Shown here: positions 1,529 to 35,277 of the stretch, piece after piece
Layout: every line of letters starts with the position of its first letter
Position numbering within the stretch: position 1 is the stretch's first letter
DNA from: a virus
Lineage: Duplodnaviria; Caudoviricetes
DNA: 36,157 nt
Strand: one strand, 5' to 3'
IMG/VR virus record: IMGVR_UViG_3300028592_000047
Span: 1 to 36,157 of that record
Program-made: the position numbers and the translations under genes
Notes under the pieces: model-generated
Told to the model about the DNA's origin: nothing
What the model saw: the letters and a program-made list of their open reading frames with translations, nothing else
Database searches by the model: none

Positions 1529-2274
1529 CGTGCTCTCCTGAAAACGAGGCTGAGAAGCCATCTGAGGAAGCTGGGCTCAGGCTCAAGGTTGTTGGATTCC
1601 GATGGCACCTTCACGATGATGGGGCCGTTGCCCTTGCCGCCGCGCTTGTAGCCGGCAACTTCGAGGGCGCGCTTGAAAACGAGGGCATGTCCGGCGATCT
1701 TGGCAGCCTTGTCGGTGCCGTTCACCACTCCACGCGAATTGATGAACTCGCGGAGGTCTTCCTCGTCGCTCTCGTCAATACCGTCGACGTAATCCCGGAG
1801 CTCCTTGCCGGTCCACCAGCCCTCGCGATTACCCAGAAACAGCGACATGGCGCTGATGAACGGGTCTCCCCGCTTTTCAGGGTTTTTTTCGAGGTCGATG
1901 CCGAGATGAAAAAGCTCGTTAAGGCGCTTGGTGGCTTTGATAGCATTGGCGCGACCAGTATTCTGAACGTCGCCTTCGCCCCGGAAACGGTATCCGTCGC
2001 CCTTCTGGGTATTCCCGAGGATTTTGCCGATCCGAGTGCCGGGCTCATACTTGTTGAAGTACTCGCGCGAACCCCTTTCGGTGATCGGCTGCATCGTGTA
2101 AGCAGTCTCGTGGTAGGACGTAGCCAGATCGTAAGCCAACTCATCCACGAAACCGTCTGAGAAATACTCCTCCCAGACGTCGAGCAATCGCGTAAAGCCA
2201 TTGACCTGACTTTGCGAGAGCGCTCCAGCGAAAAGGGGGCCGCGAATTGCCGAGTAAAACTTAGCGCGATCCAT
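1525..2274 (-). CDS. Endolysin, glycoside hydrolase family 19 (chitinase-like)
   Basis: LATSYHETAYTMQPITE, GNTQKGDGYRFRGEGDVQNTGRAN and RGVVNGTD motifs; AAGGAGG RBS. Confidence 0.88.
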   Translation of the reverse strand: MDRAKFYSAIRGPLFAGALSQSQVNGFTRLLDVWEEYFSDGFVDELAYDLATSYHETAYTMQPITERGSREYFNKYEPGTRIGKILGNTQKGDGYRFRGEGDVQNTGRANAIKATKRLNELFHLGIDLEKNPEKRGDPFISAMSLFLGNREGWWTGKELRDYVDGIDESDEEDLREFINSRGVVNGTDKAAKIAGHALVFKRALEVAGYKRGGKGNGPIIVKVPSESNNLEPEPSFLRWLLSLVFRRAR

Positions 2275-2291
2275 TGCGGCCTCCTTGGTTG

Positions 2292-2597
2292 TTAGGCAGA
2301 CACGGACACGAACAGGTTGGTGTCGCGGGTAACGCCCTCGTTGGTTTCACGGACAGTGAAGTTGTGCGTGCCAGCCGCCGAAGGGGTCGGACCAACTAGC
2401 AAGCTGTTTCCGGACAGCTTAACCCTATCCCCAGCGTCATCGGTCAGTGAAAGGGTGGACCCCACAGAAACGCCGATGAAATCACCGATTGGGGTGTCCT
2501 CCGCGCTGTTCTCGGAGAACTCGTTGTTGTCCAGCGTAAGGGCGACAAGATCAGCGCCATCGTACACCGACATGTAGACAGGAGCGTATTTAGCCAC
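2292..2597 (-). CDS. Small Ig/cadherin-like protein, possible head decoration
   Basis: Beta-rich 101 aa (FSENSAEDTPIG...LSLTDDAGDRVKLSGN...FTVRET) directly downstream of the capsid gene; AGGAG RBS. Confidence 0.55.
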   Translation of the reverse strand: MAKYAPVYMSVYDGADLVALTLDNNEFSENSAEDTPIGDFIGVSVGSTLSLTDDAGDRVKLSGNSLLVGPTPSAAGTHNFTVRETNEGVTRDTNLFVSVSA

Positions 2598-2617
2598 TTT
2601 GCTCTCCTACGGGTTGA

Positions 2618-2643
2618 GCCCCCGCGCCGAAAAGCGCGGGGGC
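2618..2643 (-). terminator. GC-rich hairpin after major capsid gene
   Basis: GCCCCCGCGC-CGAAAA-GCGCGGGGGC 10-bp stem; no strong U-tract, so possibly leaky. Confidence 0.55.
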
Positions 2644-2659
2644 GGGTGCCTTGGGAGGC

Positions 2660-3658
2660 TTAGCTGCCGATGACGTCGCCCTGCTTCACACCGTTGAACA
2701 GGATGTGAGCGAGGGGGTTGCGCATCTCGATGCCCCACTCGGTGAGGATCATGCGGGTTTCGGCGTCACCGATCTTCGCCAGAGGAATCTGACGGAAGTT
2801 ACGGAAGAAGCCAACCGCGATGAACGCCGGGTCGAGCAGGAGCGAGGTGTCGGTCGGAATCCAGCGCGACGGCATCACCTTGATGCGGCCGAAATCGGTC
2901 GCGATGACGTCGACGGTGGCGACAACCTCGGTGCGCCCGACGATGACCTGCGTCGTGTTGCGACCCTGGAAGGTCGAAACCGTGCGCTTGATCGACGGGG
3001 GGACAACCATGATCGAAGGCGAGGCGCCGTTGTTGTAGGCTGCCTGCATTGCGTCACCGACCATGACTTCGGTCAGCGGAACCTGATTGGCTCCGGCGAC
3101 AGCAGCGAAAGCGTCGGTAGCAACTGCCGGAAGGCCGGTCTTGTAGCCGACGACAGCAGCGCCTGCAACGGCGGCGCGGTCGACAGCCCTGGCGATCCAG
3201 TGGCAGATAGCTTCGGTCTTGCGGGCAGTCGGGGTGGTGTCGTCGCCGTTGACGCGAGCCTGACGACCCGACAGAATCTTCTCCATGTCCGACTTGAGGA
3301 CCTTGGACTGGAGAGCCATCTGGTGAGCCATTTCCGAGCCCTTGCCGGCAGCGTCCGAGCTCTCCTGCGAACCGGAAACGGTCGCATCGCGCTTGGAAAT
3401 CTGCGTGACGTTGGACAGACGGACGGTCGGGGTCGAAGCCGAGCGAGCGAGCTCGAAACCTTCAACCTGCGCGTTGTTCTCGTCGACGTCCGGCAGGTGT
3501 TCGGTCTGCCAGTCGAACTGACGGTTCTTGACGTTGCGGCGGCGCGACATGGACATGATCGGCGTGTCGAACGGATCGATGTTGTAGATCGCGTTCGACA
3601 GGTCTTCGCGGTTGGCCTGCGCCTGATAGGTGGTGAAAGCGTTTGTGACTTTTGCCAC
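2660..3658 (-). CDS. Major capsid protein (DUF5309 / SU10 / LUZ24-like)
   Basis: NREDLSNAIYNIDPFDTP, FDWQTEHL, NAQVEG, NVTQISK, LAKIGDAE motifs; position after scaffold and portal. Confidence 0.92.
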   Translation of the reverse strand: MAKVTNAFTTYQAQANREDLSNAIYNIDPFDTPIMSMSRRRNVKNRQFDWQTEHLPDVDENNAQVEGFELARSASTPTVRLSNVTQISKRDATVSGSQESSDAAGKGSEMAHQMALQSKVLKSDMEKILSGRQARVNGDDTTPTARKTEAICHWIARAVDRAAVAGAAVVGYKTGLPAVATDAFAAVAGANQVPLTEVMVGDAMQAAYNNGASPSIMVVPPSIKRTVSTFQGRNTTQVIVGRTEVVATVDVIATDFGRIKVMPSRWIPTDTSLLLDPAFIAVGFFRNFRQIPLAKIGDAETRMILTEWGIEMRNPLAHILFNGVKQGDVIGS

Positions 3659-3667
3659 GGGAAGCTC

Positions 3668-4807
3668 CTACTGGTTGATTATCTGGGCAAAGACGCTTGC
3701 GGCGTCCTCAACTGAGCCAGTCTTGCTCAGCTTCTTCTGTGCCCCGACAATCCCTTTGTGAGCCGTGCGCTTCGCAGCGCGTCCCGCTCCGGGGGTCATC
3801 GGCGAGCCACCAGCCTTCTTGACTGGCTTCGGCCTTGATGCCATAATGCGGTCATATTTCGAGGCTTTCAACAGCACCACAAGCATGCGGTGATCGAGGA
3901 CCTCACTGACCTCTTTCTCGGAAAACCCAACAGAAAGCGCCGTGCGACGCATGCTCTTGGTATCCTTGATCATGTCCGCCTTGTCACGCCACTTGGCGTA
4001 ATTGGCGAACTTGGGGAATTCGGCCTTGGCGAAAGCAACGAGCTCCGCCGCGTCGTCTTCCTGTGCCTTCCGGATAGCCTCTTCCCGCTTCTTGCGGATA
4101 TCGGCCACCTTAGCCTTGTAGCTGTCGTACTGCTTCTGCAGCGAACGAGCCTCGGCTGGGTTTGCCTCGAACATCTTGTCCCAGTCGGGCTCCGTCGGCA
4201 TGATGCTCGACAGAATTTCTTCAGCCTCCTCAAGGGAAGCAAAAACCTTGTTGCGGTCCGCGATGATCTTCTCAGCCGCCGCTTGAACCGTCTTGCCGGC
4301 CTCGGAAACCTCGTTCATCCGCTTGTGGAACGTCTGAACGCGGATATACCCATTCAGCGCCTCGCGGACAGGAACTTCTTTTTCCTCGCCGTCGATCATC
4401 ACCTTGACGGGGGTGTCAAGGAACTCCTTGTCTTCTTCTTCGTCGTCGGCGTCCTCGTCGGCGTCCTCGTCGGCGTCCTCGTCGTCATCGGCGTTCTCGT
4501 CGACGTCGTCGCCCTCTTCCTCGGGGTCGCCGTTGTAGAAGTTCTCGTCGCCATTTTCGAGGGCAGCGATCTCTTCGTCGGTCAGCCCCTCATTGTCGGC
4601 CTTCTTGGCGGGGCGCTTCTTAAATTCGCGGTGAACCTGATTGTCGCCGCCAGCGGCTTCCTCCTCATTTTCGAGGACGCCCATGTTGTCGAAGACCGGC
4701 TCCGGACGCGCCTTCACCTCGGAGCCGCCCGATGGAACGCTCTTGGGGGCTGTGTTGCCGATTGCCAGATCGAAGGCAGCTGCGGCTTGTTCAATACCGT
4801 CGGACAT
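3668..4807 (-). CDS. Capsid scaffolding protein
   Basis: Very acidic N-half, VMIDGEEKEVPVREALNGY motif, helical middle, EVLDHRML and C-terminal KTGSVEDAA; lies between portal and capsid. Confidence 0.85.
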   Translation of the reverse strand: MSDGIEQAAAAFDLAIGNTAPKSVPSGGSEVKARPEPVFDNMGVLENEEEAAGGDNQVHREFKKRPAKKADNEGLTDEEIAALENGDENFYNGDPEEEGDDVDENADDDEDADEDADEDADDEEEDKEFLDTPVKVMIDGEEKEVPVREALNGYIRVQTFHKRMNEVSEAGKTVQAAAEKIIADRNKVFASLEEAEEILSSIMPTEPDWDKMFEANPAEARSLQKQYDSYKAKVADIRKKREEAIRKAQEDDAAELVAFAKAEFPKFANYAKWRDKADMIKDTKSMRRTALSVGFSEKEVSEVLDHRMLVVLLKASKYDRIMASRPKPVKKAGGSPMTPGAGRAAKRTAHKGIVGAQKKLSKTGSVEDAASVFAQIINQ

Positions 4808-4824
4808 TCTGAACTCCTATGTGC

Positions 4825-4853
4825 ACTGTAGCACGGTTAGTGTGGGAAGTCAA
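4825..4853 (-). promoter_or_regulatory. Sigma70-type promoter for scaffold-capsid operon (TTGACT-N17-TACAGT, TG extension)
   Basis: Intergenic consensus match immediately upstream of AGGAG and ATG 4807. Confidence 0.75.
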
Positions 4854-4877
4854 GTATACTCGGAACGCTAGTGGGTT

Positions 4878-5135
4878 CTAACCCTTTTCCGCATCCTTTC
4901 TGGCCATTGCGCCATCGTTTTGAATGGCCTTAATACTGCCCTTGATCTTCTCCAACGCCGAAAGGATAGCGTGGGCTTGGATACCGGCTTCGGAGCCGGG
5001 CGTCGAACCCATCAGAGCGACGATCTGTTCTTTGACGATCGAGTTGACGATCCCGTTGAACATGGAAGCCTCGGCCAGCATCCTCCCGGCTTCCTCCCCG
5101 AGAGCGATGCGGTCGTTGATACTCATTTTCGACAT
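4878..5135 (-). CDS. Hypothetical protein between portal and scaffold
   Basis: 85-aa helical ORF starting 2 nt after the portal stop. Confidence 0.75.
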   Translation of the reverse strand: MSKMSINDRIALGEEAGRMLAEASMFNGIVNSIVKEQIVALMGSTPGSEAGIQAHAILSALEKIKGSIKAIQNDGAMARKDAEKG

Positions 5136-5137
5136 GG

Positions 5138-7228
5138 TCAGACGCCTTCGTCTTGCTGGTTAGCTGAAAGGATGCCCTCGGGCACCTGCGGATTGGCGGC
5201 CTTCTCGCCGAAGATTTTGGCGAGCTCCAGCATGGCGTTGACGTTGAGCTTGTCGCGCTCGAAGTCCGCATCGTTCTTGGCAACGGCGGTGTCCAGCTGG
5301 AGGCGGGCGTTGTCGTTTTCCTGCTTGCCGGTGGCGACGAGAACGTCCTTCTTGACTTTTTCGAGCTCCGCCTGAGCCAGAACAGTAGCCGGATCGGGTT
5401 CTTTGGGAGCCTCGGTGATCGCCTTCATGATCTCCGGCGTAAGCGAACCGAAATAACGGCCAAAGTTTTTGATGTTGGCGAGTGCCAGCTGATCCTGCTT
5501 GGTGTTCAGGTACATCTGAGGCGTCACAATGGGATTCGCGATGCCAAACTTCTCGATGATCATCAGCTGGGCGTTTTCGATACTGCCAAGGGCCTGCAGG
5601 CGAATAACGTCGGAGCCCTTACCGAGGGTCGGGTTGATCTCTACCCTCATCGTCGGGTCAAACTTCGAAGGGTTGATGGTGACGTACTTGCCCCGGATGG
5701 GGATCGTGCGCTCCGGGGAAGGGTTGTTGACGATTTCGCGCGCCAGACCCTGCAGCATCGGCTTGAGACCGGTTTCAGCGAGGATGCGAGCAATCAGTTC
5801 GATGCGCTCCTGAGCCCCCGAAATGATAGCGTCGATGCCGGTTAGAGCCGTCGACTGCATCGCCTTCGGGTCGAGGCCCTTGGAGGCTTCCGTGATACCG
5901 GTGCGGCTTGCGCGGACCTTGTCCAGATAGTCGATGCTCACCTGGACTTCTGCGCCCGCGTACGGGGTCTTCGAGAACGCCACAGCGGCGTTGGGGTCGC
6001 CCCTCGTGCGGATGACTGCACCCACTTCGTCGGACAGAACGTCATCGATGTTGGTGACGAGTTCATTGACGACAGTACGCGGGTTCATGCTTTCAGCCAG
6101 ATTGTCCAGCTGGCCGCGCATCATGTTTGTCTTGAACTTCTGAATGTCCTTCGTAATGTCAGCGAGGCAATCACCGATAGCCGTATGTGGGCGGGGGTCG
6201 GAACCCCACAGGGCGAAATTGACGTGTGAAACGATCCTGTCGTGAATGATGGTGTAGTTGCTGCCCATCGTGCAGATGTAGTGAAGTTCGTCGATACCGT
6301 CGCCGTCGCCGTCGATGCGGATGAAGAATTCGCCGTATTGAACACCCTCGATGACGCGCTCGTCAACCAGTCCGGGATTGCGCAGGAATCGCTCGTCGGA
6401 GTAGTAAAGCTGCTGCGTCATATTGGCGCGAATGTCATCCGGGTCGACGCCCTTCTGGATGAGAAACGACACCGGGACAAGCCTCTCGTGGCCGACGAGA
6501 CCCGCCGACTTCACCGATTTAGCGTCGCGCGAGATGCGGAATTCATCCGGGGGAACTGCGTCCGCCTTCGTAACAGGCTTAGTAACGACGCTGCGGATCG
6601 TAACCAGATCGATTACATCTTCGCTGGTCTGCTCAAGTTCGGTGACCTCACCATCTTCGCCCATCTCGTAGATGAGGGACTGGTATTGCTCCGGCGAAAG
6701 GTTCTGGTAGGTGTTTTCCTCGATTTCCGTGTCGGTGTCGGTCCACCATTTGGTGATGCCGCCCTTGACGGTCAGCGCGTCCTTGAACACCGAGTGGAGC
6801 ATCAAGAACCCCTCGTTGTCGTTGTAGAACACGTAGTTGAGATAGTCGTAAAGCTGGTCGGCCATCTCCTGATCGGCTTCCCGGCGCGGCACAAAATTGG
6901 CGATTTTTTCGCTGCCCGCCGTGAAGATGCGGATAAGCGACGGGATCACCGCCAGAATGGTGTCGCGGACATCAGTGGAGATGAAGGACGACTTGTTGGT
7001 GCTGTCGAACTCTTCATCGGGGTCTGGACCGCCCAGAGCCGGAGCAATGCCGTTGTAGTACGCCTGATTTTCCTCGCGATAAGGCGCGAGATAGCTCTGC
7101 TCGAAGTCCACGGCGTCTTCGATGAGCGCGCGAACGCGGGACTCGTAGCTTTCCGGATCGCCGGGCTCACCCGTGAGGATGACGTTGCCGGTCCCGCCGA
7201 CGCCTGAGTTGGTGAAGATTGTTTCCAT
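5138..7228 (-). CDS. Portal protein
   Basis: 696 aa between terL and scaffold; STDVRDTI...PSLIRIF, FKDAL..KGGITKWW, VPPDEFRI, RIELIARILAETG motifs of podovirus portals. Confidence 0.9.
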   Translation of the reverse strand: METIFTNSGVGGTGNVILTGEPGDPESYESRVRALIEDAVDFEQSYLAPYREENQAYYNGIAPALGGPDPDEEFDSTNKSSFISTDVRDTILAVIPSLIRIFTAGSEKIANFVPRREADQEMADQLYDYLNYVFYNDNEGFLMLHSVFKDALTVKGGITKWWTDTDTEIEENTYQNLSPEQYQSLIYEMGEDGEVTELEQTSEDVIDLVTIRSVVTKPVTKADAVPPDEFRISRDAKSVKSAGLVGHERLVPVSFLIQKGVDPDDIRANMTQQLYYSDERFLRNPGLVDERVIEGVQYGEFFIRIDGDGDGIDELHYICTMGSNYTIIHDRIVSHVNFALWGSDPRPHTAIGDCLADITKDIQKFKTNMMRGQLDNLAESMNPRTVVNELVTNIDDVLSDEVGAVIRTRGDPNAAVAFSKTPYAGAEVQVSIDYLDKVRASRTGITEASKGLDPKAMQSTALTGIDAIISGAQERIELIARILAETGLKPMLQGLAREIVNNPSPERTIPIRGKYVTINPSKFDPTMRVEINPTLGKGSDVIRLQALGSIENAQLMIIEKFGIANPIVTPQMYLNTKQDQLALANIKNFGRYFGSLTPEIMKAITEAPKEPDPATVLAQAELEKVKKDVLVATGKQENDNARLQLDTAVAKNDADFERDKLNVNAMLELAKIFGEKAANPQVPEGILSANQQDEGV

Positions 7229-8604
7229 TACCGGGCTCTCCTGATGTTCTTGCGAAGCGCCTTCGCAGAGCGAATTGAGACGACATTGTTGGAAGTCAAG
7301 TAGCCCATGACTTGCGAGATAGAGACCGAGCCATACCGGAAACTATCGGAAGCATGCGAAGCCCAGTTGTGGACCGGCTTACCCGCCTTGGAGCGGTGAT
7401 AGTTGCGAAGACCGGATCGGCCCTGCTCTGTCTTAACCTTGTCGAACCACACGAGCGGCAGCGTCGACCGAACAGCCTGAATGCCATCCTCCGGCGAAAG
7501 GGAGGGGGCGATGAAGATCGGTTCGCTCTCGGGCAGAAGACCGACCATAACCTCGTAGCGGCTCTTACCGGTCCCAAGCTCCCTAGCTCTGATGTCGTGC
7601 GGCGGGACATGAGAGCCGAAGGTGTACTTCTGGCGGTGTCTGATGCGTTCCGGCACTTCGCCCTTGATCGGATCGACCCAAGTGCCTTTAACCATTTTCA
7701 GGGCATCTTCTAGGCCTTTTCCGGTGAATTCTTCGTAGTCGATGGCGTGAAGCTCGCCGCCTGCCTTCTGGACAAACCAGATGGCCATGTAATCGTCGAT
7801 ACCCAAGTCCCACCAAGTGACGACGGGCTGCGTTGGATCGTACGGAACCCCCGTGATCCTGCCCGCCGCCTCGGCTTGGTTCATGAGGTCCGCGTAATAT
7901 GCGCCCTCGACCGGAGCGTCGAAGCTGCAGAGCATTTCGCGGGCGTACTCTTCCGCCGTCATATCCTTCGTCATTTCGACGACTTCGTCTGGATGCAGCG
8001 CATCGGTTTCGGTCACCGGGATAACGAAGAAGTCCCAGGAGGGATCGAGGAAGTTCTTTTTCTTAAGCTCGTGGAAGTGATCGTCGCCGTTGGACGTGCC
8101 GCTTATGATCGCCCAACCGCGATAATCAGCCAGACAAGGACGAACGACAGTGGAAAATACGGACGGATTGAGGAGAGGAAACTCATCCAGCATAATTCCG
8201 TCAAAATAGAGACCGCGCATACGCTCGTAAGCGGCTGCGCCTCCGTAAAGACTGATGGTGGCACCATTGGGTAGAGTGCAAGTGAGATCGCTTTCAGAGT
8301 ACTTGACATCTGGCAGGACACTCGTATAATGCTTAAGATATCCCCAGATAAGGTCTTTCGTCTGGGCGAAGGAGGGGCCAACATAGGCGTAGCGGGGATG
8401 CGGGAATTTGCGCTTGTTTTGAAGCGCCGACTTAATCATCTCGTTGATGGCGGCGACTGACTTGCCAGCGCGGCGATGCGCTACAACGAACTTCCAACGC
8501 TTTTCGGAGGCGTGCAGAGGCTTAAAATGCTCACGCGGGGTATACGGAATAATGATCCGCGTTGCCAGCGCCTCTGGCTTCGGCGCTTCCGCGTAATTGT
8601 TCAT
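7228..8604 (-). CDS. terL: Terminase large subunit
   Basis: Walker A VVAHRRAGKS, Walker B IMLDE, RNase H-like WWDLGIDD and HASDSFRY. Confidence 0.95.
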   Translation of the reverse strand: MNNYAEAPKPEALATRIIIPYTPREHFKPLHASEKRWKFVVAHRRAGKSVAAINEMIKSALQNKRKFPHPRYAYVGPSFAQTKDLIWGYLKHYTSVLPDVKYSESDLTCTLPNGATISLYGGAAAYERMRGLYFDGIMLDEFPLLNPSVFSTVVRPCLADYRGWAIISGTSNGDDHFHELKKKNFLDPSWDFFVIPVTETDALHPDEVVEMTKDMTAEEYAREMLCSFDAPVEGAYYADLMNQAEAAGRITGVPYDPTQPVVTWWDLGIDDYMAIWFVQKAGGELHAIDYEEFTGKGLEDALKMVKGTWVDPIKGEVPERIRHRQKYTFGSHVPPHDIRARELGTGKSRYEVMVGLLPESEPIFIAPSLSPEDGIQAVRSTLPLVWFDKVKTEQGRSGLRNYHRSKAGKPVHNWASHASDSFRYGSVSISQVMGYLTSNNVVSIRSAKALRKNIRRAR

Positions 8605-8783
8605 GCCGGGTCTTTCTCTTGGAGATGAAAAGTCATCGTGGAGAATACCCGGTCAGGCACGAACATGACGACACCAGTATCGAACGTTACCTTCCACTTA
8701 TCTTTGACCCCAGATGTCTTGGGGGATAGGAATGCCAGGGCAAGCCCTAGGTCTGCAGTGTCGATTTCAGATTTGTCACTCAT
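8601..8783 (-). CDS. Hypothetical protein
   Basis: 60-aa ORF overlapping both the terS stop and the terL start. Confidence 0.6.
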   Translation of the reverse strand: MSDKSEIDTADLGLALAFLSPKTSGVKDKWKVTFDTGVVMFVPDRVFSTMTFHLQEKDPA

Positions 8784-9240
8784 GCTCGATTACCTTCGCG
8801 TCACTCTCTTCCGGCTGGAAGGAGGTCCCATCGGCCCAAGAGATGTTAATGGTGCCCTTCGGGGCATTAATGGTGACACCACCCTTCGCGGCTCCATACC
8901 CCCGATCGCCGCCAAGATTGGTCATGATGAACCGAGCCATGGTGTCTTGCCGACCCTTGTCCTCGTCATCCATCAGCGCATCGTAGGCGATATCCTCTGA
9001 GATATCCAGAAGCTGCTGTTGCGCCTCTTTGACCTCCGCCGAAAGGAAGGGGGAAGTCTTGATGAATGCGCGGAGCCGGGAAGAGGGCACCTTGAGCATT
9101 TCAGCCGCTTTGGTGACATTGCCGCGCTGCTTCCACAAGGCGGTGCGACATTCTTCGACGTCCAGAGGCAGCGAAGCAGGCCTCTCGTCGTAGGGCATTG
9201 TGGGCAAGGGGATCAGGTCTTGAGGTAGCATTGTGTCCAC
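8776..9240 (-). CDS. terS: Putative terminase small subunit (HTH)
   Basis: ALWKQRGNVTKAAEMLKV helix-turn-helix, LGGDRGYG motif, upstream of terL. Confidence 0.75.
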   Translation of the reverse strand: MDTMLPQDLIPLPTMPYDERPASLPLDVEECRTALWKQRGNVTKAAEMLKVPSSRLRAFIKTSPFLSAEVKEAQQQLLDISEDIAYDALMDDEDKGRQDTMARFIMTNLGGDRGYGAAKGGVTINAPKGTINISWADGTSFQPEESDAKVIEHE

Positions 9241-9261
9241 ATACAGAAGCGCCGCTGCAGT

Positions 9262-9290
9262 ATATTACCACAGCGGCGCGGTGCCGTCAA
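9262..9290 (-). promoter_or_regulatory. Sigma70-type promoter for terminase-portal operon (TTGACG-N17-TAATAT)
   Basis: Intergenic consensus match with TG extension. Confidence 0.7.
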
Positions 9291-9307
9291 GAGTGCCTGG
9301 AACCCGG

Positions 9308-9688: not shown

Positions 9689-9712
9689 CTTGGCTATCTC
9701 CGGTTTCGGTTA

Positions 9713-9751
9713 AAAAGACGCCCCGGAGAGGGGATAACTACTCCGGGGCGT
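9713..9751 (-). terminator. Rho-independent terminator
   Basis: ACGCCCCGGAG / CTCCGGGGCGT 11-bp stem followed by CTTTT on the minus strand. Confidence 0.7.
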
Positions 9752-9756
9752 AGAGG

Positions 9757-10152: not shown

Positions 10153-10184
10153 GTACCTAGTCGAATGCTGCGCCGCAGACAGTT

Positions 10185-26673: not shown

Positions 26674-28492
26674 CTATCTCGACGCAATTGACCCCGAACT
26701 AGCGCTGATGATCGTGCGGGAAAGTAAGGTGATCGCCTATGACACCGAAACTTCCGGCCTTGTCCACGGCGTTGCCTTCATCTGCGGGTATGTCATCACC
26801 GATCACTCGCACTCCCTTTACATTCCGGTCCGCCACGAGGGCGGCGGCAACATTCCGTTCGTCGAGGAATTCGAGCAGGAGCTCAACGCGGCGTTTCAAG
26901 AGCGCGGGCGTCTCGGCCTTCGCACGGTCGGTCACAACCTTGGCTTCGATCTGCGCATGTCGGCGTGGCACAACGTCTGGCCCCAAAGCCCCCTCGAAGA
27001 CACGTTGATCAATGAAGGTCTGATCGACGACCGGACCATCGGTTACGGCCTCGACGACTGTTGCCGCAGACACCAAGTCACCGCCAAGAAGGGCGACGAG
27101 CTCTACCGCGCTATCGCTGAGAGGTTCGGCGGAATCCCCGATCGCAAACAGATGGCTAACTTCTGGCGGATGCCGGGGGACCAATTCGAAGTGGTGGACT
27201 ACGCCACGGGTGACGGCGTGTCGACGTTGGAGTTGTGGTCGTCACAGAACGTGCTGCTCGACCAAGAACAGCTGAGGGTTCCGTGGCAGCTGGAGTGCGA
27301 CCTCCTGCCCTACCTCGCCCGCATGCACAGACGCGGAATCCGAATTGACGCCGACTACGCCGAAAGGGTGGAGGACGACCTCAAGGATCAGATCAAGGAA
27401 GCCAGTTCCGTATTTTCGGCGGGTTTCAACGTCCGGTCCCCCAAGGAAGTCGAGGCGCTGTATCGGGCCAACGGCTACGGCGACGACTCCTTCGATCGCA
27501 CGGATACCGGCAAGGTTTCCTTCACCGAAAGCTGGCTCGAAACTAATGAGATCGGCAGCAGCATCCTCGGCGTTCGCCGTCTGGAAAAGGCGCGCGACAG
27601 CTTTATCGCCCCGCTCGCCGTCACCAACAACATCGCTGGGCGGGTTCACGCCACGCTCAATCAGTCCAAATCCGACGAATACGGCGTTGCTGGTTCCCGC
27701 CTCTCCTGCTCGGTCCCCAATCTCCAGGCGTTCCCCAAGCGCAACAAGCAGGTCGGCAAGGTCGTGCGCCGCCTAGTCATTGCTGATGACGGTATGTTGC
27801 TGGAGGAAGGCGATGCGATGCAGCAGGAGCCGCGCTTCTTTGCCCATTACAGTGAAGACGAGGCGCTGCTTCACGGCTACAACACCGACCCGTCCTTCTC
27901 GGTCCACCATCGCGCCAACGACATGATGTTCGACGGGCAGGAGTACGATAAGGCCAAGCGCATGGCCATGGGCATCCTTTCGATGATGTACCCCAGGGCG
28001 CTGGCTGGCCATCTGCGCATCAGCGTCAAGGAAGCCTCGGCGCTGCGGCAAAAGTTCCTCTACGAGGCGTTCCCCGCGATCGGCCAGTTCCAAAAGGACG
28101 TGGTCAGTGTATTCGAGAGCCGGGGTTATGTTCGCTCGATCCTAGGCCGAAAAGCGAGGCTGGAGACGAGCAAGTGGGCGTACAAGGGCGTGTCGCGCGT
28201 GATCCAGAACAGCGGCGGCGACCATATCAAGACGTGCATTCTGCGCGCCTGCCAGTACGAGGACGCCTACCCCGACTTGGTTCAAATCCTACTGTCCATT
28301 CACGACTCCGTTATGTGGCAGCGCGACCCGGCCCACTCCCCCAAGGAGTTGGTGCGCGTAATGGAGAACGTGCCGCACGAGCCGCAGTTCAACCTCCGCC
28401 TGCCCATTCCTTTCGAGGTGGGCTCCGCTCGCAACTGGTCGGACGCGTCGTACGGCCCCAAGATCAAGGATAAGATGGGATGGCAAATCTAG
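26651..28492 (+). CDS. Family A DNA polymerase with 3'-5' exonuclease; candidate Z-selective DpoZ (start may be 26666)
   Basis: ExoI IAYDTETSGL, ExoII GHNLGFDL, ExoIII YATGD; SRLSCSVPNLQ, motif A GDAMQQEPR, motif B KAKRMAMGILS, motif C SIHDS. Confidence 0.93.
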   Translation: MGYQKMSDYLDAIDPELALMIVRESKVIAYDTETSGLVHGVAFICGYVITDHSHSLYIPVRHEGGGNIPFVEEFEQELNAAFQERGRLGLRTVGHNLGFDLRMSAWHNVWPQSPLEDTLINEGLIDDRTIGYGLDDCCRRHQVTAKKGDELYRAIAERFGGIPDRKQMANFWRMPGDQFEVVDYATGDGVSTLELWSSQNVLLDQEQLRVPWQLECDLLPYLARMHRRGIRIDADYAERVEDDLKDQIKEASSVFSAGFNVRSPKEVEALYRANGYGDDSFDRTDTGKVSFTESWLETNEIGSSILGVRRLEKARDSFIAPLAVTNNIAGRVHATLNQSKSDEYGVAGSRLSCSVPNLQAFPKRNKQVGKVVRRLVIADDGMLLEEGDAMQQEPRFFAHYSEDEALLHGYNTDPSFSVHHRANDMMFDGQEYDKAKRMAMGILSMMYPRALAGHLRISVKEASALRQKFLYEAFPAIGQFQKDVVSVFESRGYVRSILGRKARLETSKWAYKGVSRVIQNSGGDHIKTCILRACQYEDAYPDLVQILLSIHDSVMWQRDPAHSPKELVRVMENVPHEPQFNLRLPIPFEVGSARNWSDASYGPKIKDKMGWQI

Positions 28493-28839
28493 GCAACTCG
28501 ATTCGTCCGAAAGGTAAGTCGTTCCACAGCATCATGCGGGCTGTTATGGCGGCGATATCCGAGCCAGACACAAGCGTGGTCCACATCAGCGACTCCCTTC
28601 ACACAGCGCGGCATCACATGCAATACGCGGCCCACATCGTTCAGCCGCTTGGCGAGTTCGCCAAAGTGCGCCTGACAGACATGTGGATTGTGTTCGACAA
28701 CGGGTCGCGAGTCAACTTTGTGTCGGGGCGTGACACCTACTGGGTAAAGGGCAACCGGCACCGCAGATTCTTCATCGACCATTACGCGTTCGAAGAGGGG
28801 TTGACACCGGTTGAGCTCCGTGGTAAAGTGGAGGTGTAG
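28480..28839 (+). CDS. Hypothetical protein
   Basis: 119 aa; IVFDNGSRVNF...FFIDH resembles a degenerate P-loop fragment. Confidence 0.65.
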   Translation: MANLGNSIRPKGKSFHSIMRAVMAAISEPDTSVVHISDSLHTARHHMQYAAHIVQPLGEFAKVRLTDMWIVFDNGSRVNFVSGRDTYWVKGNRHRRFFIDHYAFEEGLTPVELRGKVEV

Positions 28840-28842
28840 GGG

Positions 28843-29073
28843 ATGGTAGTCCGGCCTAATGACCCAACCGTGGCGATTGAGGGGAAAATTGAGCACAAAG
28901 CACCGAAATCGTACCTTATGGAACTTACGCTCGGTGGCCGCTATTTCGTGCCGTTTTCTCAGATACTCGGCGGCATGGACGGTATCGGTGACCCGGACGG
29001 CCACGGCAATTTCCAAATCGAAGTCTCGCAGTGGTGGTGGGACAGGAAAACGGAGGTAGAGGATACGCGATGA
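28843..29073 (+). CDS. Hypothetical protein
   Basis: 76 aa after GGAGG; YFVPFSQI motif. Confidence 0.75.
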   Translation: MVVRPNDPTVAIEGKIEHKAPKSYLMELTLGGRYFVPFSQILGGMDGIGDPDGHGNFQIEVSQWWWDRKTEVEDTR

Positions 29074-29453
29074 AGCCGGAAGCGAAAGCTAAGAACGCGA
29101 TTGTCGACGCCTTCCAGGAGGGTGGGCATTATGCGCGCCGCTTCGAGGATCAGTTCTATGTCGGTTTCCCCGATATGATACTGATACCTCGCGGCTATCC
29201 GGCTTTCTTCACCGAGGCTAAGATTGTCGACGGGCTGCAATTCAAGCCCCGACTTCGGCAATGGGTTGAGCTTGACCGGCTGTCCCTTTCGCCGAAGCAC
29301 GTGATTCCCACAATGTTGGGGGTAAAGGCGGGTGTCCACTACCTGCACAAGTTCGCCAAAATCGTGCACATTGTCGACTGCGTAAAGCAGCGGGATGGCG
29401 AACACATAGTGGATTTGTTCAAGCGATACTACCACGAAAGGATGGAATTATGA
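29070..29453 (+). CDS. VRR-NUC / PD-(D/E)xK nuclease (resolvase-like)
   Basis: KPE...GFPDMILI...FFTEAK...Q motifs. Confidence 0.8.
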   Translation: MKPEAKAKNAIVDAFQEGGHYARRFEDQFYVGFPDMILIPRGYPAFFTEAKIVDGLQFKPRLRQWVELDRLSLSPKHVIPTMLGVKAGVHYLHKFAKIVHIVDCVKQRDGEHIVDLFKRYYHERMEL

Positions 29454-29848
29454 GTGACAACAAACGCGTTGCCGGTGACCTCATCACCCAAGCGGCCAAG
29501 ACAGTCCTGAAAGACCGCCCCGGCGTCCACGGGTCGGTTGAAAACAGCTTCCAGATGATCGCCGACCTCTGGAACGTGCGTATCGCCCACAAGCGCGCCA
29601 TTCACGGCAGCGATGCTCTGCTCAACCCGGCTGACGTGGCGCAGTTCATGGCCGACCTCAAGTCGTGCCGCACCTCTTACGGCGACCCGATGAACGCTGA
29701 CAACTTCGTCGACGGCATCGGCTACCTCGCCTTGGCGGGCATGCTCACCTTGCCCGACCCAGACGCTTCCAAATCGGTGGGGGACGAGCTCGAAAAAGAG
29801 TTCCCGCCAATAAGCGGCAAGACCGTTCACACCAACATCAACGCGTAA
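29450..29848 (+). CDS. DUF6378-like protein
   Basis: DR..VHG..ENSFQMIADLW, DVAQFMADLKSCR, DNFVDGIGYLAL. Confidence 0.75.
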   Translation: MSDNKRVAGDLITQAAKTVLKDRPGVHGSVENSFQMIADLWNVRIAHKRAIHGSDALLNPADVAQFMADLKSCRTSYGDPMNADNFVDGIGYLALAGMLTLPDPDASKSVGDELEKEFPPISGKTVHTNINA

Positions 29849-29859
29849 GGACACGACAA

Positions 29860-30924
29860 ATGCACAGCGTCCCCTTGTTCGAAGCGACCGGAGCTCACGT
29901 TCTGGTCGATGGTCAATACGGCTCCACGGGCAAGGGGGTGCTGGCCGCTTGGCTGGCACTCAGGGCCATGGAGCGGGGTATCGTTTTCGACACTGTCGTC
30001 AGCAATGCCGGTCCGAACTCTGGTCACACGTTTTACCACGGCAGCGAAAAGCACGTCCTGAAACAGCTGCCCACGTTCGCCGTAGCGTCCTACCTTCTCC
30101 ACAACGAGGACTTCGCTCCGGACGTCGTCCTTTCGGCGGGCGCGATCATCGACCCTATTCAGCTGGGCGTCGAGGCCGAAAAGTACCCCGGCATCACGAT
30201 CCATGTTCACCCCAATGCGGCGGTCATCACCGCCGAGGACCGGGCGGCGGAGCATTCCGGCACCATAGCCGCCGTGGCTGGTACCCGAAGTGGCACTGGC
30301 GCGGCGCTAGCCCGGAAGGTGCAGCGGGACCCCAAGGCGGTGGTAGCGGGTGCGAGGCTGCCGGTCCAGATGACCTCGCAGCCCAACATCAAGGTCGCCG
30401 CCGTTGAGCACGACGCCTACAACGATCGGGTGTTCGTCGAGGTGAGCCAGGGTTTTTCGTTGGGCATTAACCAGCCGTTCTATCCGAAGGTCACGAGCAG
30501 GGAGTGCACCGTTGCACAAGCCATCGCTGATGCTGGTATTCCGCCGAGGCACGTCACCAAGACTTACCTATCGCTTCGTACTTTTCCGATACGCGTCGGC
30601 AACGTGGATGGGCACGACAGCGGGGACTGGTACCCCGATCAGGTTGAAACTGACTGGGTCGCGCTCGGTGTCGAACCAGAACTCACCACCGTCACCCAGA
30701 GGGTGAGGCGTGTCGCAACATGGTCCGAGGAACAATTCCTCGATGCCTGCCGTGCCAATGACCCGGACATTGTGTTCCTGAACTTCCTCAACTATATTGA
30801 TGACGTGGAAGTTCGCATGCGGTTCATCGACGGCGTTGCCGATCTTCGGGACAACCTGCCCCGCTGGTACGATATCTACGGCAGCACCGGCCCCAAGTCG
30901 GAGGACGTAAGCTACTATGGTTAA
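29860..30924 (+). CDS. purZ: N6-succino-2-amino-dAMP synthase (adenylosuccinate synthetase paralog)
   Basis: DGQYGSTGKG (Ser in place of the PurA catalytic Asp of GDEGKG), PNSGHT, SQGFSLG, YPKVTSRE, RTFPIRVG, ELTTVTQRVRRV, FLNFLNY. Confidence 0.9.
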   Translation: MHSVPLFEATGAHVLVDGQYGSTGKGVLAAWLALRAMERGIVFDTVVSNAGPNSGHTFYHGSEKHVLKQLPTFAVASYLLHNEDFAPDVVLSAGAIIDPIQLGVEAEKYPGITIHVHPNAAVITAEDRAAEHSGTIAAVAGTRSGTGAALARKVQRDPKAVVAGARLPVQMTSQPNIKVAAVEHDAYNDRVFVEVSQGFSLGINQPFYPKVTSRECTVAQAIADAGIPPRHVTKTYLSLRTFPIRVGNVDGHDSGDWYPDQVETDWVALGVEPELTTVTQRVRRVATWSEEQFLDACRANDPDIVFLNFLNYIDDVEVRMRFIDGVADLRDNLPRWYDIYGSTGPKSEDVSYYG

Positions 30925-31381
30925 CCACACTTACGACGATGACTACGAGGAAGAAATAGTGCGCAACGAAAAGGAACACTCTACGCACCCGGTCCGCCCC
31001 TTGGTGCCCCGCCTATCCAGAGAAGACATGGAACAAATCGCTAGCAGGGTAGAGAAGGCGGCGGGCGTAGATTTCCACGTGAATCTTCAATCTCCGCCCA
31101 ATCAGCCCCTGACGATCGAAATCCCAAGCGAGGTCCTCCAGTATCGCGAAGATATCCGCCGCTTCGTCGACGCGATGCTCTACAAATTGAAGGTCCACCA
31201 CCGAAAAGGCAGGTGGGAGGGTAAGACCATCGACGAATATCTGCCGCTATTGGAGGGGGAGGTGGCCGAGCTACGGGAAGCCTGTGGCGGCGGCAACTTG
31301 ATAGAGATACTCATGGAGGCCGCTGACACCGCCAACATGGCTATGATCATATCAGCAATAGCGGTGGAGCGAGGGAAATGA
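30917..31381 (+). CDS. mazZ: MazG-like all-alpha (d)NTP pyrophosphohydrolase, probable dGMP supplier
   Basis: LEGEVAELREA...ILMEAADTANMA (ExxE...ExxD); overlaps the purZ stop. Confidence 0.72.
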   Translation: MVNHTYDDDYEEEIVRNEKEHSTHPVRPLVPRLSREDMEQIASRVEKAAGVDFHVNLQSPPNQPLTIEIPSEVLQYREDIRRFVDAMLYKLKVHHRKGRWEGKTIDEYLPLLEGEVAELREACGGGNLIEILMEAADTANMAMIISAIAVERGK

Positions 31382-31587
31382 GTACGCCTTTCATGGGTAC
31401 TGTAGGTTTCGACACCGGAATCAAGGACAAGCACGGGAACCCCATCCACATCGGGGACGAGCTACGTTTCGACGAAAGGGAGTGGGGCGGACCCTGCATA
31501 TTCACGGTGGGGTTCGTCGACGGAGAGTTGACGGGCTGCGGCTCGATCGGTGACTGGTCGGAATGGTGCGAGGTGGTGCAGAAATGA
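31378..31587 (+). CDS. YopX-like small protein
   Basis: TGIKDKHGNPIHIGDEL motif. Confidence 0.65.
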   Translation: MSTPFMGTVGFDTGIKDKHGNPIHIGDELRFDEREWGGPCIFTVGFVDGELTGCGSIGDWSEWCEVVQK

Positions 31588-31790
31588 CCAGTCGCCCTAC
31601 ACACGACGCGGTGCAGATCGTCAAGGCCGTCCTTTGGGAAGAAGCCAAAGGCAAGCTCCGAGCCCTCGTTGCCGCCGAGGGGTCAAGATACAGCACTCCT
31701 GAAAAGGGCGAGCCCTTCAAGCACGAGGTAATCTCGGAGGAAATCGAGGCGTTCATCAAGGCTTTTGAGGGCGAGGAGTACAATCTGTGA
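31584..31790 (+). CDS. Hypothetical protein
   Basis: 68 aa overlapping both neighbours by 4 nt. Confidence 0.7.
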
Positions 31791-32341
31791 CCAGTCGCAA
31801 CACAATTTTCAACGAGTTGGATCACCGCCTTTCGGTCGTTAAGCGTTGGGGCATCCTCCACACAATCCAGACGCAATCGGTGGCGGAGCATTGCTTCAAC
31901 GTTCAGCGCATCGCCATGCGGATTGCGCGAGAATGGTTCGGGATACAGAACCCCTCCGTTATGCTCCAGATTGCCGAAAGGGCGCACCACCACGACGATC
32001 TGGAATCGGTGATGGGCGACCCGCCCACGATGATCAAGCCGTACCTCGACGAGGAAGGCATGGCGAGGGATCACGCCGATCTTGTGCCGATACGCACGGT
32101 CAATAACGAAGTGAAGCGAATCGTCAAGCTGGCCGACATGCTTGAGGCGTTCCACTTCATCTGCATCGAGCGGTTGCTCGGCAACAGGTTTGTCGAGAAC
32201 CACTACAAGAGCTACTGGAACGAAATCGGTGACTACGTGATCACGGCGTTCCCGGATTGTAACATATGGGGCGACGTGTCAGGTGTCATGGAGAACATGG
32301 CGAACGACATCTCCGAACGCCACAGCAAGCGGGGCCGCTGA
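31787..32341 (+). CDS. datZ: HD-domain phosphohydrolase, probable dATP triphosphohydrolase
   Basis: VKRWGIL...[10 protein letters not shown]...[17 protein letters not shown]...[10 protein letters not shown]; co-located with purZ. Confidence 0.85.
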
Positions 32342-32342
32342 C

Positions 32343-33731
32343 ATGCAGCTTTTCGATGTGCAGAAGGAAGGCTTGCGGCGCAGCGGCGGCGCTCGTGGCT
32401 TCGGGTATTTCATGGAGCAGGGCCTCGGTAAGACGTTGACCGCCGAGGCCGACTACCTGGAACGCGTGGCAGAAGGTAACGCCGACCGTTCCATCGTGGT
32501 GTGCCCCAATTCGTTCAAGGGCGGGTGGGTGTCGGACGCCGAAAAGCACGGGCTGGAAATCGACCAGATGGTTTACGACAGCGGCAGCAACGCCGCGTCG
32601 TATTGGGCGAACCGTCCGTCCAATCGCCCCAAGCAACTGATCATCAACTACGAGGCCATCCGCTCCGAAGCGACGATGAACTTCCTTAAGGGGTTCATGC
32701 TCAACCGCCGCGTTTTCGGCATATTTGACGAGAGCATCAAGCTCAAGACATTCAACAGCAGCCAGACCAAGGCCGCCATCGAAATCAGCAAGGATTTTTC
32801 CTACTCCCGCATCCTTTCGGGGAAGCCGGTTTCGCAGGGTCCGCATGACTTGTGGGCGCAGATGCGCGTCATCGGTCAGCTGAATGGTCGCGAGTACTAT
32901 CCGTTCAAGACTATGTTCTGCAAGATGGGCGGCTTCAAGATGAAGCAGGTGATGGGGGTCCAGAACGAGGATTTTCTCCGCCCGATGATCGAACCGCATG
33001 TGTTCCGGGCCACTAAGCTGGACTGGACCGACCTACCGCCCAAGCTGTACACCAGCCGGGAATACAAGATGTCGGGTGACATGCTCACTATGTACAAGCA
33101 GATGCATGAGGAATTCGTTGTTTGGCTCAACGAAGATGAGAATGTATCGGTAGACGCCGCCATCACGAAGTACATCAAGCTGGCGCAGATTCAGTGCGGC
33201 TGGATTTACGACAACGAAGGCAAAGTCCGCCAGCTGGTCGACGACGAAAAGAACCCGCGCCTAAACCTGCTGTCTGACACGATTGAAGAAGAGATCGTGG
33301 GCAAGACAATCGTCGTGTATCACCACAAGCCGGTGTACGACCAATTGATGCGGCGCTTCAAGCATCTGAACCCGGCGTGGATCAAAGGGAAGATGAAGTC
33401 GGAAGAGATTGAGGCCCAAAAGCGCCGCTTCAATGAGGACGACGACTGCCGCATCATTTTCTTGCAGGATGACGCCTCGAAGTACGGCCACACGCTTTTG
33501 GGCAACCAGTCCAAGACGGAGACGGCTTGCTTCAACACGTTGTTTTATGAGAACAGTTACTCGCTCGACACCCGGAGCCAGATCGAGGACCGAAACCACC
33601 GGCATGGGCAGACGATGGATTCGGTCCTCTACACCGATCTAATCGGAAGTCCGCTAGATCGGGATTGTGTTGCGGCTCTGGTGCGCAAGGAAAGTGTTTT
33701 CCAAGCTATTTTCGGCCACCTTAGGCGCTAA
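32343..33731 (+). CDS. SNF2-family helicase
   Basis: MEQGLGKT, IVVCP, INYE, IFDES, LSGKP, SQIEDRNHRHGQ. Confidence 0.9.
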   Translation: MQLFDVQKEGLRRSGGARGFGYFMEQGLGKTLTAEADYLERVAEGNADRSIVVCPNSFKGGWVSDAEKHGLEIDQMVYDSGSNAASYWANRPSNRPKQLIINYEAIRSEATMNFLKGFMLNRRVFGIFDESIKLKTFNSSQTKAAIEISKDFSYSRILSGKPVSQGPHDLWAQMRVIGQLNGREYYPFKTMFCKMGGFKMKQVMGVQNEDFLRPMIEPHVFRATKLDWTDLPPKLYTSREYKMSGDMLTMYKQMHEEFVVWLNEDENVSVDAAITKYIKLAQIQCGWIYDNEGKVRQLVDDEKNPRLNLLSDTIEEEIVGKTIVVYHHKPVYDQLMRRFKHLNPAWIKGKMKSEEIEAQKRRFNEDDDCRIIFLQDDASKYGHTLLGNQSKTETACFNTLFYENSYSLDTRSQIEDRNHRHGQTMDSVLYTDLIGSPLDRDCVAALVRKESVFQAIFGHLRR

Positions 33732-33808
33732 GGTCTGGGCGGCGGGCTAAGCAGTACGATCACCGTGATGGTGCAGATGATGAACACGCCGAAAAGGAGC
33801 AAGTTCAC
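33728..33808 (-). CDS. Possible 26-aa membrane peptide
   Basis: GTGA overlap with the upstream stop; MNLLLFGVFIICTITVIVLLSPPPRP. Confidence 0.35.
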   Translation of the reverse strand: MNLLLFGVFIICTITVIVLLSPPPRP

Positions 33809-35277
33809 TCGCTGTTCCCCTTCGCCAAAAGCCCGCCGCCGACACCGCCCATCTTGTTTTTCAGGAACTCCTTGAGCCAAGAAGCTTGTTTCTTACCGCC
33901 GCCCAACTTGTCTACGAGTTTTTCGATGTTAGCCTTGGTGTAGCTCTTAGCCCCCGCCTTAACCAGTGGCGGGACAATCAGAGCCGAAGTGCCGCCGACA
34001 GCTGCGCCGACTGGACCGGCCAGAATGCCGCCCGCCGCCGCGCCGCTTCCGAACGAGCCTAGCTTGGTTGCGGCGCTAACGGCGCTGTTGGCCAGCCCCT
34101 GTTCCCAGCCCTCGCCGCGCACGATGTTCTTGAGCAGTTCGGCTTCTTCGTCGTCCATCCCGCGAGTGCCCTTGTTGAGCATCTGACGGAATGGTCCGAT
34201 CTCGCCGGCGATGGTGCCGCCCGCGTTCTTGCCCTTCTCGATCGCCTGCTCCACGCCCTTTCGGACCTGCAGCGTTCGGTTGCTCTCGCGGGCTCCCTTG
34301 ATGAGCCTCTGGGCTTCAGCGTTGGACGCGTTCTTCGGCTGGACTGTTTCGACGAAATCGTCGATAGCCCGGCGCATCAGATCGCCCATGTGGCTTACGC
34401 CATTGCCCCCGGAAACGTCACGGTCGATGATCTGGCGCTGGGTGTCCAGATCGAGAAGGCTCCGAGGGCTCCGCTCCGAAAAGCGCTTGGCCCGGATTGC
34501 GGCGGGCTTGTGCAACTCGGGGTCCATGTGAGCCCCGCGAAGCTTGCCCTGCATGTCCTTCGCCAGCTTGGCGATGTCCTTCGGGTTGTACTCGATGCCC
34601 GCATCGTCGACAGCTTTGTAGGCGGCATCCTTTGCCGTGTACATTTCATCCAACGATTTGGGTGGGGTTACGCTGTCGCCCAGAATACCCGGCAGCAAGC
34701 CGGTCTTCTTGGACAGCCAGCCAAGTCCGGAGCTCAGCGTCTTGCCGAGCACGGTTCCGCCAGCGCCGCCGACCATGCCTTGAAGCATGCCCGTATCGGC
34801 GTCCTCGCCTTCGCCCGCCGCAACGCCGCCGCCAACCAACCCGCCCGCCAACGTCTCGCGTACCATCGACGGCAGGAACCCCGACCCCGAAATAGCGGGC
34901 AGCGCCGTGCCAACTGCCGTCGAGGCGATCTTGCTCGGGGCGATCAGAGCGAGAATATCTGTACCGATCTTGGCTGATCCCGCCCTTTCTCGAGCTTCTT
35001 CACTCTTTTGCGCTTCTGCTTCCGGGTTAGGTAGAAGCTTGTTGAGCTGCCCAAAAGTGATAGTATCTGCAAAATTTCTGGCGGTATCGTCCGCCGCTTG
35101 TGCGGCTTGCAAGTACCAGGGTTGCGCACGGAATTTTTCCACCGCAGTTGGCTCCGGCGTCAATGCCGCAGCTTGGGACATCGATTTGATCTCAGCGGCC
35201 AGACGGCGGGCAGCGTTGGTGTCGCCCGCCTTGTCCGCGTTACGGAGAGCTTTCTCGAGTTGTTCGCGTGTCGCCAT
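33805..35277 (-). CDS. Putative internal virion / DNA ejection protein
   Basis: 490 aa; MATREQLEKALRNADKAGD N-terminus, ADTITFG motif, Gly/Ala-rich hydrophobic segments; end of structural arm. Confidence 0.7.
   Translation of the reverse strand: MATREQLEKALRNADKAGDTNAARRLAAEIKSMSQAAALTPEPTAVEKFRAQPWYLQAAQAADDTARNFADTITFGQLNKLLPNPEAEAQKSEEARERAGSAKIGTDILALIAPSKIASTAVGTALPAISGSGFLPSMVRETLAGGLVGGGVAAGEGEDADTGMLQGMVGGAGGTVLGKTLSSGLGWLSKKTGLLPGILGDSVTPPKSLDEMYTAKDAAYKAVDDAGIEYNPKDIAKLAKDMQGKLRGAHMDPELHKPAAIRAKRFSERSPRSLLDLDTQRQIIDRDVSGGNGVSHMGDLMRRAIDDFVETVQPKNASNAEAQRLIKGARESNRTLQVRKGVEQAIEKGKNAGGTIAGEIGPFRQMLNKGTRGMDDEEAELLKNIVRGEGWEQGLANSAVSAATKLGSFGSGAAAGGILAGPVGAAVGGTSALIVPPLVKAGAKSYTKANIEKLVDKLGGGKKQASWLKEFLKNKMGGVGGGLLAKGNSE

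Follow-up and report, generated by a model that had tools for sequence, protein, structure and literature searches.

A dispersed, oriented word in phages with 2-aminoadenine genes as a candidate priming signal

Template words are known for few phage primases of the archaeo-eukaryotic primase (AEP) type. Published descriptions report that AEP primases which join a primase-polymerase (Prim-Pol), a helical domain and a helicase read short template words, GTG and TTTGGTTA (PMC8718748, PMC7102993). The NrS-1 polymerase is described there as reading TTTGGTTA and GTG(G/A) on the template, with the start up to three bases away (PMC8718748), and its 8-nt site, found one or two times, has been proposed as an origin (PMC7102993). 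The lactococcal protein GP55 is reported to read CCAAC (PMC12205980). The Z-phage S-2L is reported to have shown no priming on standard templates, and the authors write that the triggering template is still to be found (PMC8065100). Here we describe a short word dispersed over 36,157 nucleotides of phage DNA (IMG/VR record IMGVR_UViG_3300028592_000047, positions 1 to 36,157; the window). We argue that it may be the template signal of the phage's own predicted primase. IMG/VR contig G001, 44,045 bases long and from soil metagenomes, contains the 36,157 bases of the window (2 mismatches), and the phage carries genes for 2-aminoadenine (Z) synthesis.

Octamer excess and the wider word

The octamer is present 24 times in the window, as 13 copies of CCTTTCGG and 11 of CCGAAAGG, all exactly where the initial annotation had placed them and with no further copies. 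The zero-order expectation, given there as ~1.4, came to 1.39 on recomputation, an order-3 Markov model expects 2.8, and under order-2 to order-4 Markov models the octamer is the most over-represented 8-mer in the window. We curated 58 genes by hand, by which 88.8% of the window is coding. 19 of the 24 copies lie within genes, 8 in sense and 11 in antisense, each orientation being enriched alone. Synonymous shuffling predicts 1.8 coding copies (maximum 6 in 500 shuffles), a null that keeps codon-junction dinucleotides predicts 4.4 (maximum 12 in 500) and a codon-pair Markov null 4.6 (maximum 11 in 300), so that 0 of 1,300 shuffles over the three codon nulls reached 19. Because the observed count exceeds the codon-junction and codon-pair nulls, the enrichment withstands the dicodon-preserving shuffling by which it was to be refuted (4.4-4.6 expected vs 19). 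The copies use both orientations, as first described, but rather than spreading over several frames most of them fall into two, CTT-TCG antisense (10) and GAA-AGG sense (5). The octamer excess is real and selected at the DNA level, a claim of the initial annotation that is backed by the codon nulls and by the fraction of encodable places realised (below).

Inspection of the flanks revealed that the octamer belongs to a longer unit, C-R-N-C-G-A-A-A-(G/A)-(G). A fraction of 0.95-1.02 of the CGAAA excess over the codon null falls on copies with C at -3 and ~0.9 on copies with a purine at -2, whereas C at -1 is weak; G or A, and then G, follow the core. C stands two bases upstream of the octamer in 16 of its 24 copies. 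The dispersed word CRNCGAAA(G/A)(G) extends over positions 804..35700 on both strands, with 76 copies of CRNCGAAA (45 on + and 31 on -), and this set takes in part of the 24 octamers. The stricter CRSCGAAA(R)G has 38 copies in the window, and CRCCGAAAGG has 16 in the 44 kb of phage genome G001. The octamer excess thus stands as first annotated, whereas this wider consensus, the variants across the family and the purZ-mazZ-datZ cluster had been missed. The proposed mini-hairpin did not hold up, as the flanks do not covary: the base after CCGAAAGG is not paired with the base before it (A..T 5/41, G..C 18/75). Single-mismatch neighbours likewise speak against a hairpin of the GNRA or DNA mini-hairpin kind, the GG end being favoured whatever base precedes. 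The idea of a modification target found no partner, with a methyltransferase or other sequence-specific modifier in 0 of the 58 window proteins.

To place the word in its family we used 24 genomes, namely G001-G023, which are 23 contigs from IMG/VR, some of them incomplete, and the only close cultured relative, Ochrobactrum phage vB_OspP_OH (Wolominvirus OH; here OH). CCGAAAGG lay above all 40 shuffles in 10 of the 24 (G001-G007, G019, G020 and OH), with 10-24 copies against 0.9-2.5, and many partial loci agree with the enrichment. OH shares its gene order, three paralogous proteins (below) and the word itself (CRSCGAAAG, 31 vs 3.0 expected) with the window phage, and its PurZ is 59% identical. 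The term 'motif' is absent from the main text of its description (PMC7139368). A second clade (clade B) and the group of G023 have variants in which the upstream half is kept, namely CRSCGAAT, CRSCGAAAT or CRSCCAAW; in G023, CRNCGAAT reaches 50 copies vs 9 expected. The word variant matches the primase tree, calculated by a quick method, with the exception of L023/G022. G016 (L153, L200-L202) is a complete relative without purZ, mazZ, datZ and the paralogues. Its CRNCGAAA count is 26 vs 19 and it has a weak MRSCCAAW signal (40 vs 22); classing it as motif-free was rejected, for it lacks the CGAAA word but has this weak CCAAW excess. G021 (L279-L280; 47% guanine-cytosine) has almost no word enrichment. 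Conservation of sites in relatives, a check proposed in the initial annotation, was mostly not seen at the level of position: an alignment of 17 core genes from 11 genomes has 215 site positions, of which 155 occur in a single genome, and 7 of 31 sites of the window phage are common to OH. Word density is kept while positions turn over.

In 151 bacterial genomes of the phylum of G024, CRCCGAAAGG reaches at most ~16 per Mb. In most of them it does not exceed its reversed control; a few genomes lie above it (G025, 30 vs 8). The density in sampled bacteria is at least 20-fold below that in the phage. Host mimicry is not supported, in that the word is not over-represented in the sampled bacterial chromosomes, of which the true host may not be one. 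A scan of a genome collection found one short contig of a metagenome-assembled genome and no clue to the host. Eight stretches of bacterial DNA, S. meliloti pSymB and B. anthropi pOANT01 among them, have the looser CRNCGAAA at 1.0-1.7x the codon null, and signals below 2x in some relatives are therefore not trustworthy.

Excess of CRSCGAA was missing in five other purZ phages; ZP6, phiVC8 and BUCT555 show CCAAW instead. Together with K300, these are Z podoviruses with a related primase-helicase (L207, L208, L211, L302). Across the four genomes CCAAW occurs 846 times vs 611 on both strands, with a hint of per-strand evenness (7/8 strands), and its polarity (z 3.1-3.5) is inseparable from transcription (z 0.1-0.4). 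CCAAW could be the priming word of these four phages. In Acinetobacter phage 53 (L210), ACTGG/AACTGG is ~2x enriched on both strands.

Spacing, orientation and a priming signal

The geometry of the word was tested on the 10 enriched genomes pooled. At places where CRSCGAAAG can be encoded synonymously it is realised in 185 of 363 cases antisense and 80 of 379 sense, where ~4% and ~3% are expected. CRNCGAAA copies on one strand are spaced more evenly than the random median in 19 of 20 strands, 7 of them at p<0.05 (Fisher 1e-8). For the two strands of the window phage the p values are 0.002 and 0.004, with mean gaps of 781 and 1,249 bp. Pairs less than 300 bp apart are too few when both copies lie on one strand (124 vs 176), whereas pairs across strands show no such deficit (193 vs 165). 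Nine control patterns of like shape, those frequent enough to use among ~400 random patterns, gave -log10 P of at most 0.7 vs 8.2 for the word. With both strands pooled, evenness at p<0.05 was seen in 1 of 10 genomes. The strict CRCCGAAAGG shows even spacing in 0 of 10 strands, its copies being too few to show it. The spacing limit between copies of one strand, with none across strands, indicates indirectly that each strand's copies work independently of the other strand.

The orientation of the word changes with position relative to a non-coding junction of ~1 kb between the divergent late and early arms (11368..12379). Eight bins, taken from the junction out along the early arm and then along the late arm back to it, gave realised fractions of 0.72, 0.49, 0.39, 0.43, 0.22, 0.28, 0.12 and 0.05 for the - strand, and of 0.16, 0.32, 0.24, 0.27, 0.67, 0.41, 0.44 and 0.57 for the + strand. 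The 3' end of CRNCGAAAG thereby points to the junction from both sides. The within-arm slope has z 3.6 and is positive in 9 of 10 genomes (looser word, z 2.7 and 8 of 10), whereas three control words gave z of -0.7, 0.9 and 1.3; the clade-B variants gave 2.8 and 2.1. For the loose word the flip at the junction is not sharp. Once position is modelled the transcription-sense term falls to z 1.0, and the apparent antisense bias is therefore a positional gradient. The junction holds a perfect 27-bp inverted repeat (11738-11764 / 11837-11863) with a 72-nt spacer, and is a candidate origin or genome-end region. A contig end and a drop in depth near 12,280 in one of four sequencing runs are too weak to use for genome ends.

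The inferred reader of the word is an 849-amino-acid primase-polymerase (20921..23470, + strand) with a helical middle domain and a C-terminal helicase. It has PHROG primase matches, with DUF5906 in the helicase part, and this part also matches the NrS-1 polymerase (E 4e-10). The Prim-Pol match itself is weak (Pfam E 0.048, below the cut-off); the residues D88-x-D90-x-D92 and H127 are invariant, and on these grounds the protein falls in the class of Prim-Pol fused to helicase. An orthologue is found in 24 of 24 family genomes. That of OH (gp22) is 62% identical, and the OH paper reports an HHpred match to cd04859 at 99.4% (PMC7139368). The structural model has a confident helical bundle at residues 225-350, while the N-terminal 360 amino acids have a predicted local distance difference test score (pLDDT) of 66 and no clear fold match, the pRN1 primase 3m1m scoring only E 0.5. 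A search of this N-terminal part against PDB gave no sequence match.

Okazaki fragments have lengths of 1-2 kb. By general replication logic, even spacing of ~1 kb on each strand and a smooth gradient fit lagging-strand priming sites, and for this reason a primase recognition site, one of the roles listed in the initial annotation, fits best. The primase as reader also accords with word variants that follow the primase tree, with the low densities in bacteria and with the weak variant in G016, the one genome that has neither the paralogues nor the Z genes. We put the probability at roughly 0.55 that the word is a single-strand template signal at which the predicted primase would start primers. 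It would be kept about once per kilobase per strand as a start site for lagging-strand primers. Forks would set out in both directions at or near the junction and converge at differing points, so that the need for sites on each strand would be greatest where that strand is oftenest the lagging template. On this geometry the template word would read 5'-(C)(C/T)TTTCGNYG-3', with a GTG/GCG-like triplet at its end, and the primer would open with C/G and continue with three 2-aminoadenines. Were forks to run towards the junction instead, the opposite strand would be read.

Several observations weigh against a priming signal. The argument comes from sequence, and the 10 pooled genomes are not independent, because they were selected for enrichment and are mutually related. 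G021, which has the closest primase (69%), the Z genes and all three paralogues, holds only 28 CRNCGAAA vs 17, the fragment G022 holds 14 vs 9, and the weak variant in G016 (1.8x) lies inside the range of related words in bacterial DNA. G019 and G020, whose primases have 45-49% identity, carry the word, but clade-B genomes with closer primases lack it. No residue of the primase, and none in 17 core proteins, is a clean predictor of the word variant, the search giving nothing beyond relatedness. Clade B shows no even spacing, and plain AAA has a gradient in its genomes too (z 3.7), weakening this replicate. In the window phage alone the gradient is inseparable from transcription (z 1.2 with the term, 2.6 without). 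Finally, the NrS-1 genome record holds the 8-nt site once, with CCAAW not enriched, and NrS-1 is for that reason no precedent for a dispersed array.

A bolder form of the priming reading would have a whole family of 2-aminoadenine phages write its replication map into its genes. The clade-specific word would mark start sites and its gradient where forks start and meet; primers would carry a 2-aminoadenine run, and priming would need the 2-aminoadenine triphosphate dZTP together with the phage's own word, confining replication to phage DNA. The primase specificity and fork geometry of uncultured phages would then be readable from their genomes. We advance this only tentatively and think it rather unlikely as a whole. 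If the word is a priming signal, the choice among synonymous codons is shaped by selection for priming at half of the eligible places, and orientation gradients become a source of information on how forks move in uncultured phages. For a large primase family, in which vB_OspP_OH is the one cultured phage, the genome proposes a precise word, a strand logic and variants.

Other readers of the word and gene content

The word could be the binding site of three abundant paralogous proteins, which would cover or tag the (Z-containing) DNA of the phage itself, an explanation we regard as unlikely. Paralogue A (14218..14661, +), with an unnamed domain marked by GW[QE]GRxRMT, heads the genes downstream of a sigma-70-like promoter at 14136; paralogue B (17855..18874, +) has the same domain at its C-terminus and lies behind a promoter-like site at 17750, and paralogue C (23569..24069, +) behind one at 23497. 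This placing of each copy speaks for such a role, as do the 2-4 copies in nearly all family genomes, with none in G016, which is without the CGAAA word, and one in the weak fragment G022. The absence from G016 is confounded, however, because G016 lacks the Z genes too, and G021 combines all three paralogues with a weak word signal. The domain has an invariant Arg-rich helix in a model of pLDDT 91, with weak matches to SAP, LEM, Rho-N and EndoVII-type folds (Z 3.4-3.9), but these lie within background, and clades that differ in their word have one and the same conserved helix. Only same-strand copies of the word repel each other, which a double-strand coat does not need. The domain (~120 amino acids) has 963 representatives at E<=0.001 and no Pfam or PHROG family; its alignment comprised 141 rows, one of them out of frame. 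No fold match above background was found for it in PDB, and BFVD returned only the three copies of OH and one uncultured phage. Atlas searches as a whole gave no lead reaching 0.9. Were these proteins the readers, an unnamed domain with ~960 representatives would gain a DNA target.

About as unlikely, in our estimate, is an oriented signal for a DNA translocase, either Chi-like, stopping a helicase-nuclease that comes in from a genome end and promoting recombination, or KOPS-like (FtsK-orienting polar sequences), guiding a packaging or resolving motor to the junction. The word is oriented to the junction, its fixed point, from both sides, as Chi is with respect to an enzyme coming in. The spacing per orientation fits, and an SNF2 helicase and proteins like Pam3 gp33/gp34 are encoded. 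A host Chi should be common in the host, yet the bacterial densities given above stand against 16 copies in 44 kb of phage DNA. The word also differs between phage clades, and no phage enzyme with such specificity was found.

A by-product of a codon-pair habit, of restriction-site avoidance or of mutation bias in 2-aminoadenine replication, primase-written primers included, would accord with the dominance of two frames. The genome does avoid CCGCGG, CCWGG, CAGCTC and GANTC, bacterial DNA shows a mild antisense CGAAW excess, and the four other Z podoviruses have CCAAW at 1.15-1.5x. We nevertheless consider this very unlikely. The codon-pair nulls fall far short of the observed count, nearly all of the CGAAA excess comes from copies that have C at -3, even spacing is no product of mutation bias, and the words of S-2L and Acinetobacter phage 53 are different although both phages have purZ.

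The least likely reader is a helix-turn-helix protein using the word as an operator or stoperator network for transcription: although a candidate is conserved family-wide (16048..16638, +; HTH_23 E 0.0099, below the cut-off; atlas lead 0.81), one word copy lies in a promoter spacer and the coding strand carries the reverse complement ~2x as often, its recognition helix is strongly altered in G019, G020 and G023, which keep the word, and hardly changes between clades whose words differ, non-coding copies are roughly proportional to non-coding DNA, the transcription term vanishes with position in the model, sense copies are enriched too (5-8x), and no integrase or repressor module was seen among the window proteins. 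The gene for this protein is duplicated or inverted in several relatives. The promoter in question (TTGACA-17-TACGAT, 13324..13352, +) has the word in its spacer at 13334-13343 on the - strand, and no copy was noted at the other 12 listed promoter-like sites. The late arm has three similar leftward promoter-like blocks (CTACTTGAC...) at 10949-11433, and near-identical ribosome-binding-site blocks of 28 nt precede the genes at 12651 and 12924.

The phage is a podovirus with an SU10-type capsid and portal and two convergent arms. Besides the primase-helicase and the SNF2 helicase, the window encodes a family A DNA polymerase (PolA; 26666..28492, +), which would extend primers. A complete DUF6378-purZ-mazZ-datZ cluster occupies 29450-32341. 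PurZ (29860..30924, +; phrog_1211), of the 2-aminoadenine pathway, is 38% identical to phiVC8 PurZ, with GSTGKG aligned, and has the motif Y20-G21-S22, in which Ser replaces the Asp of PurA; the counterpart in S-2L PurZ is reported to be Y21-G22-S23 (PMC8342488). A mazZ-like gene (30917..31381, +) lies between purZ and datZ, its product 59% identical to the nucleoside triphosphate pyrophosphohydrolase gp33 of OH and with a weak PRA-PH match. The dATP triphosphohydrolase gene datZ is at 31787..32341 (+; phrog_7076, YfbR-like). This gene set suggests that the phage DNA holds 2-aminoadenine. BLAST was negative for datZ orthologues in many clade-B genomes that keep purZ, some of which were recovered by six-frame search. 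GANTC occurs 0 times vs 190 expected in G016, without the Z cluster, and in 46-256 copies in the other 23 genomes, as if 2-aminoadenine relaxed the avoidance of A-containing sites. Across the window CCGCGG is found at 0 vs 21 sites and CCWGG, CGGCCG, CAGCTC/GAGCTG and GANTC are avoided as well, while GAGCTC is frequent.

Comparison with known systems

Chi sites, read by RecBCD or AddAB, and KOPS, read by FtsK, are asymmetric words that are frequent in host chromosomes and oriented to a fixed point of the genome. The word of the window phage is like them in its asymmetry and octamer size, in its over-representation inside genes and in its orientation relative to a fixed point. They differ in being read by host enzymes, whereas this word is rare in the sampled bacteria and varies with the phage clade. 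The stoperators of Cluster A mycobacteriophages are 13-bp sites bound by the repressor of temperate phages. They too come in many asymmetric copies with a bias relative to gene direction, but the word of the window phage has 8-10 bp, is enriched in both orientations and is biased by position in the pooled test. In the open-access literature, main texts only, we found no description of the word, of a family signal or of such a map in Z-genome phages.

The closest likeness is to NrS-1 and to ORF904 of pRN1 (site GTG), in which a short asymmetric word goes with an enzyme of Prim-Pol, helical domain and helicase. The sites of pRN1 and NrS-1 share a GTG/GCG-like end with the reverse complement of the word, which starts TTT, and the clade-B variant, set beside these sites, reads WTTGG. 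TTTCGNYG is partly like the known sites GTG and TTTGGTTA, and the CAC triplet by itself is not enriched (10,532 vs 10,361). The N-terminal domains of NrS-1 and of the window primase have no detectable sequence likeness, and NrS-1 does not have the ~90 dispersed, evenly spaced and polarised copies seen in the window phage. This case offers a cultured member, clade-specific variants, an estimate of saturation, a positional gradient and the setting of a Z genome.

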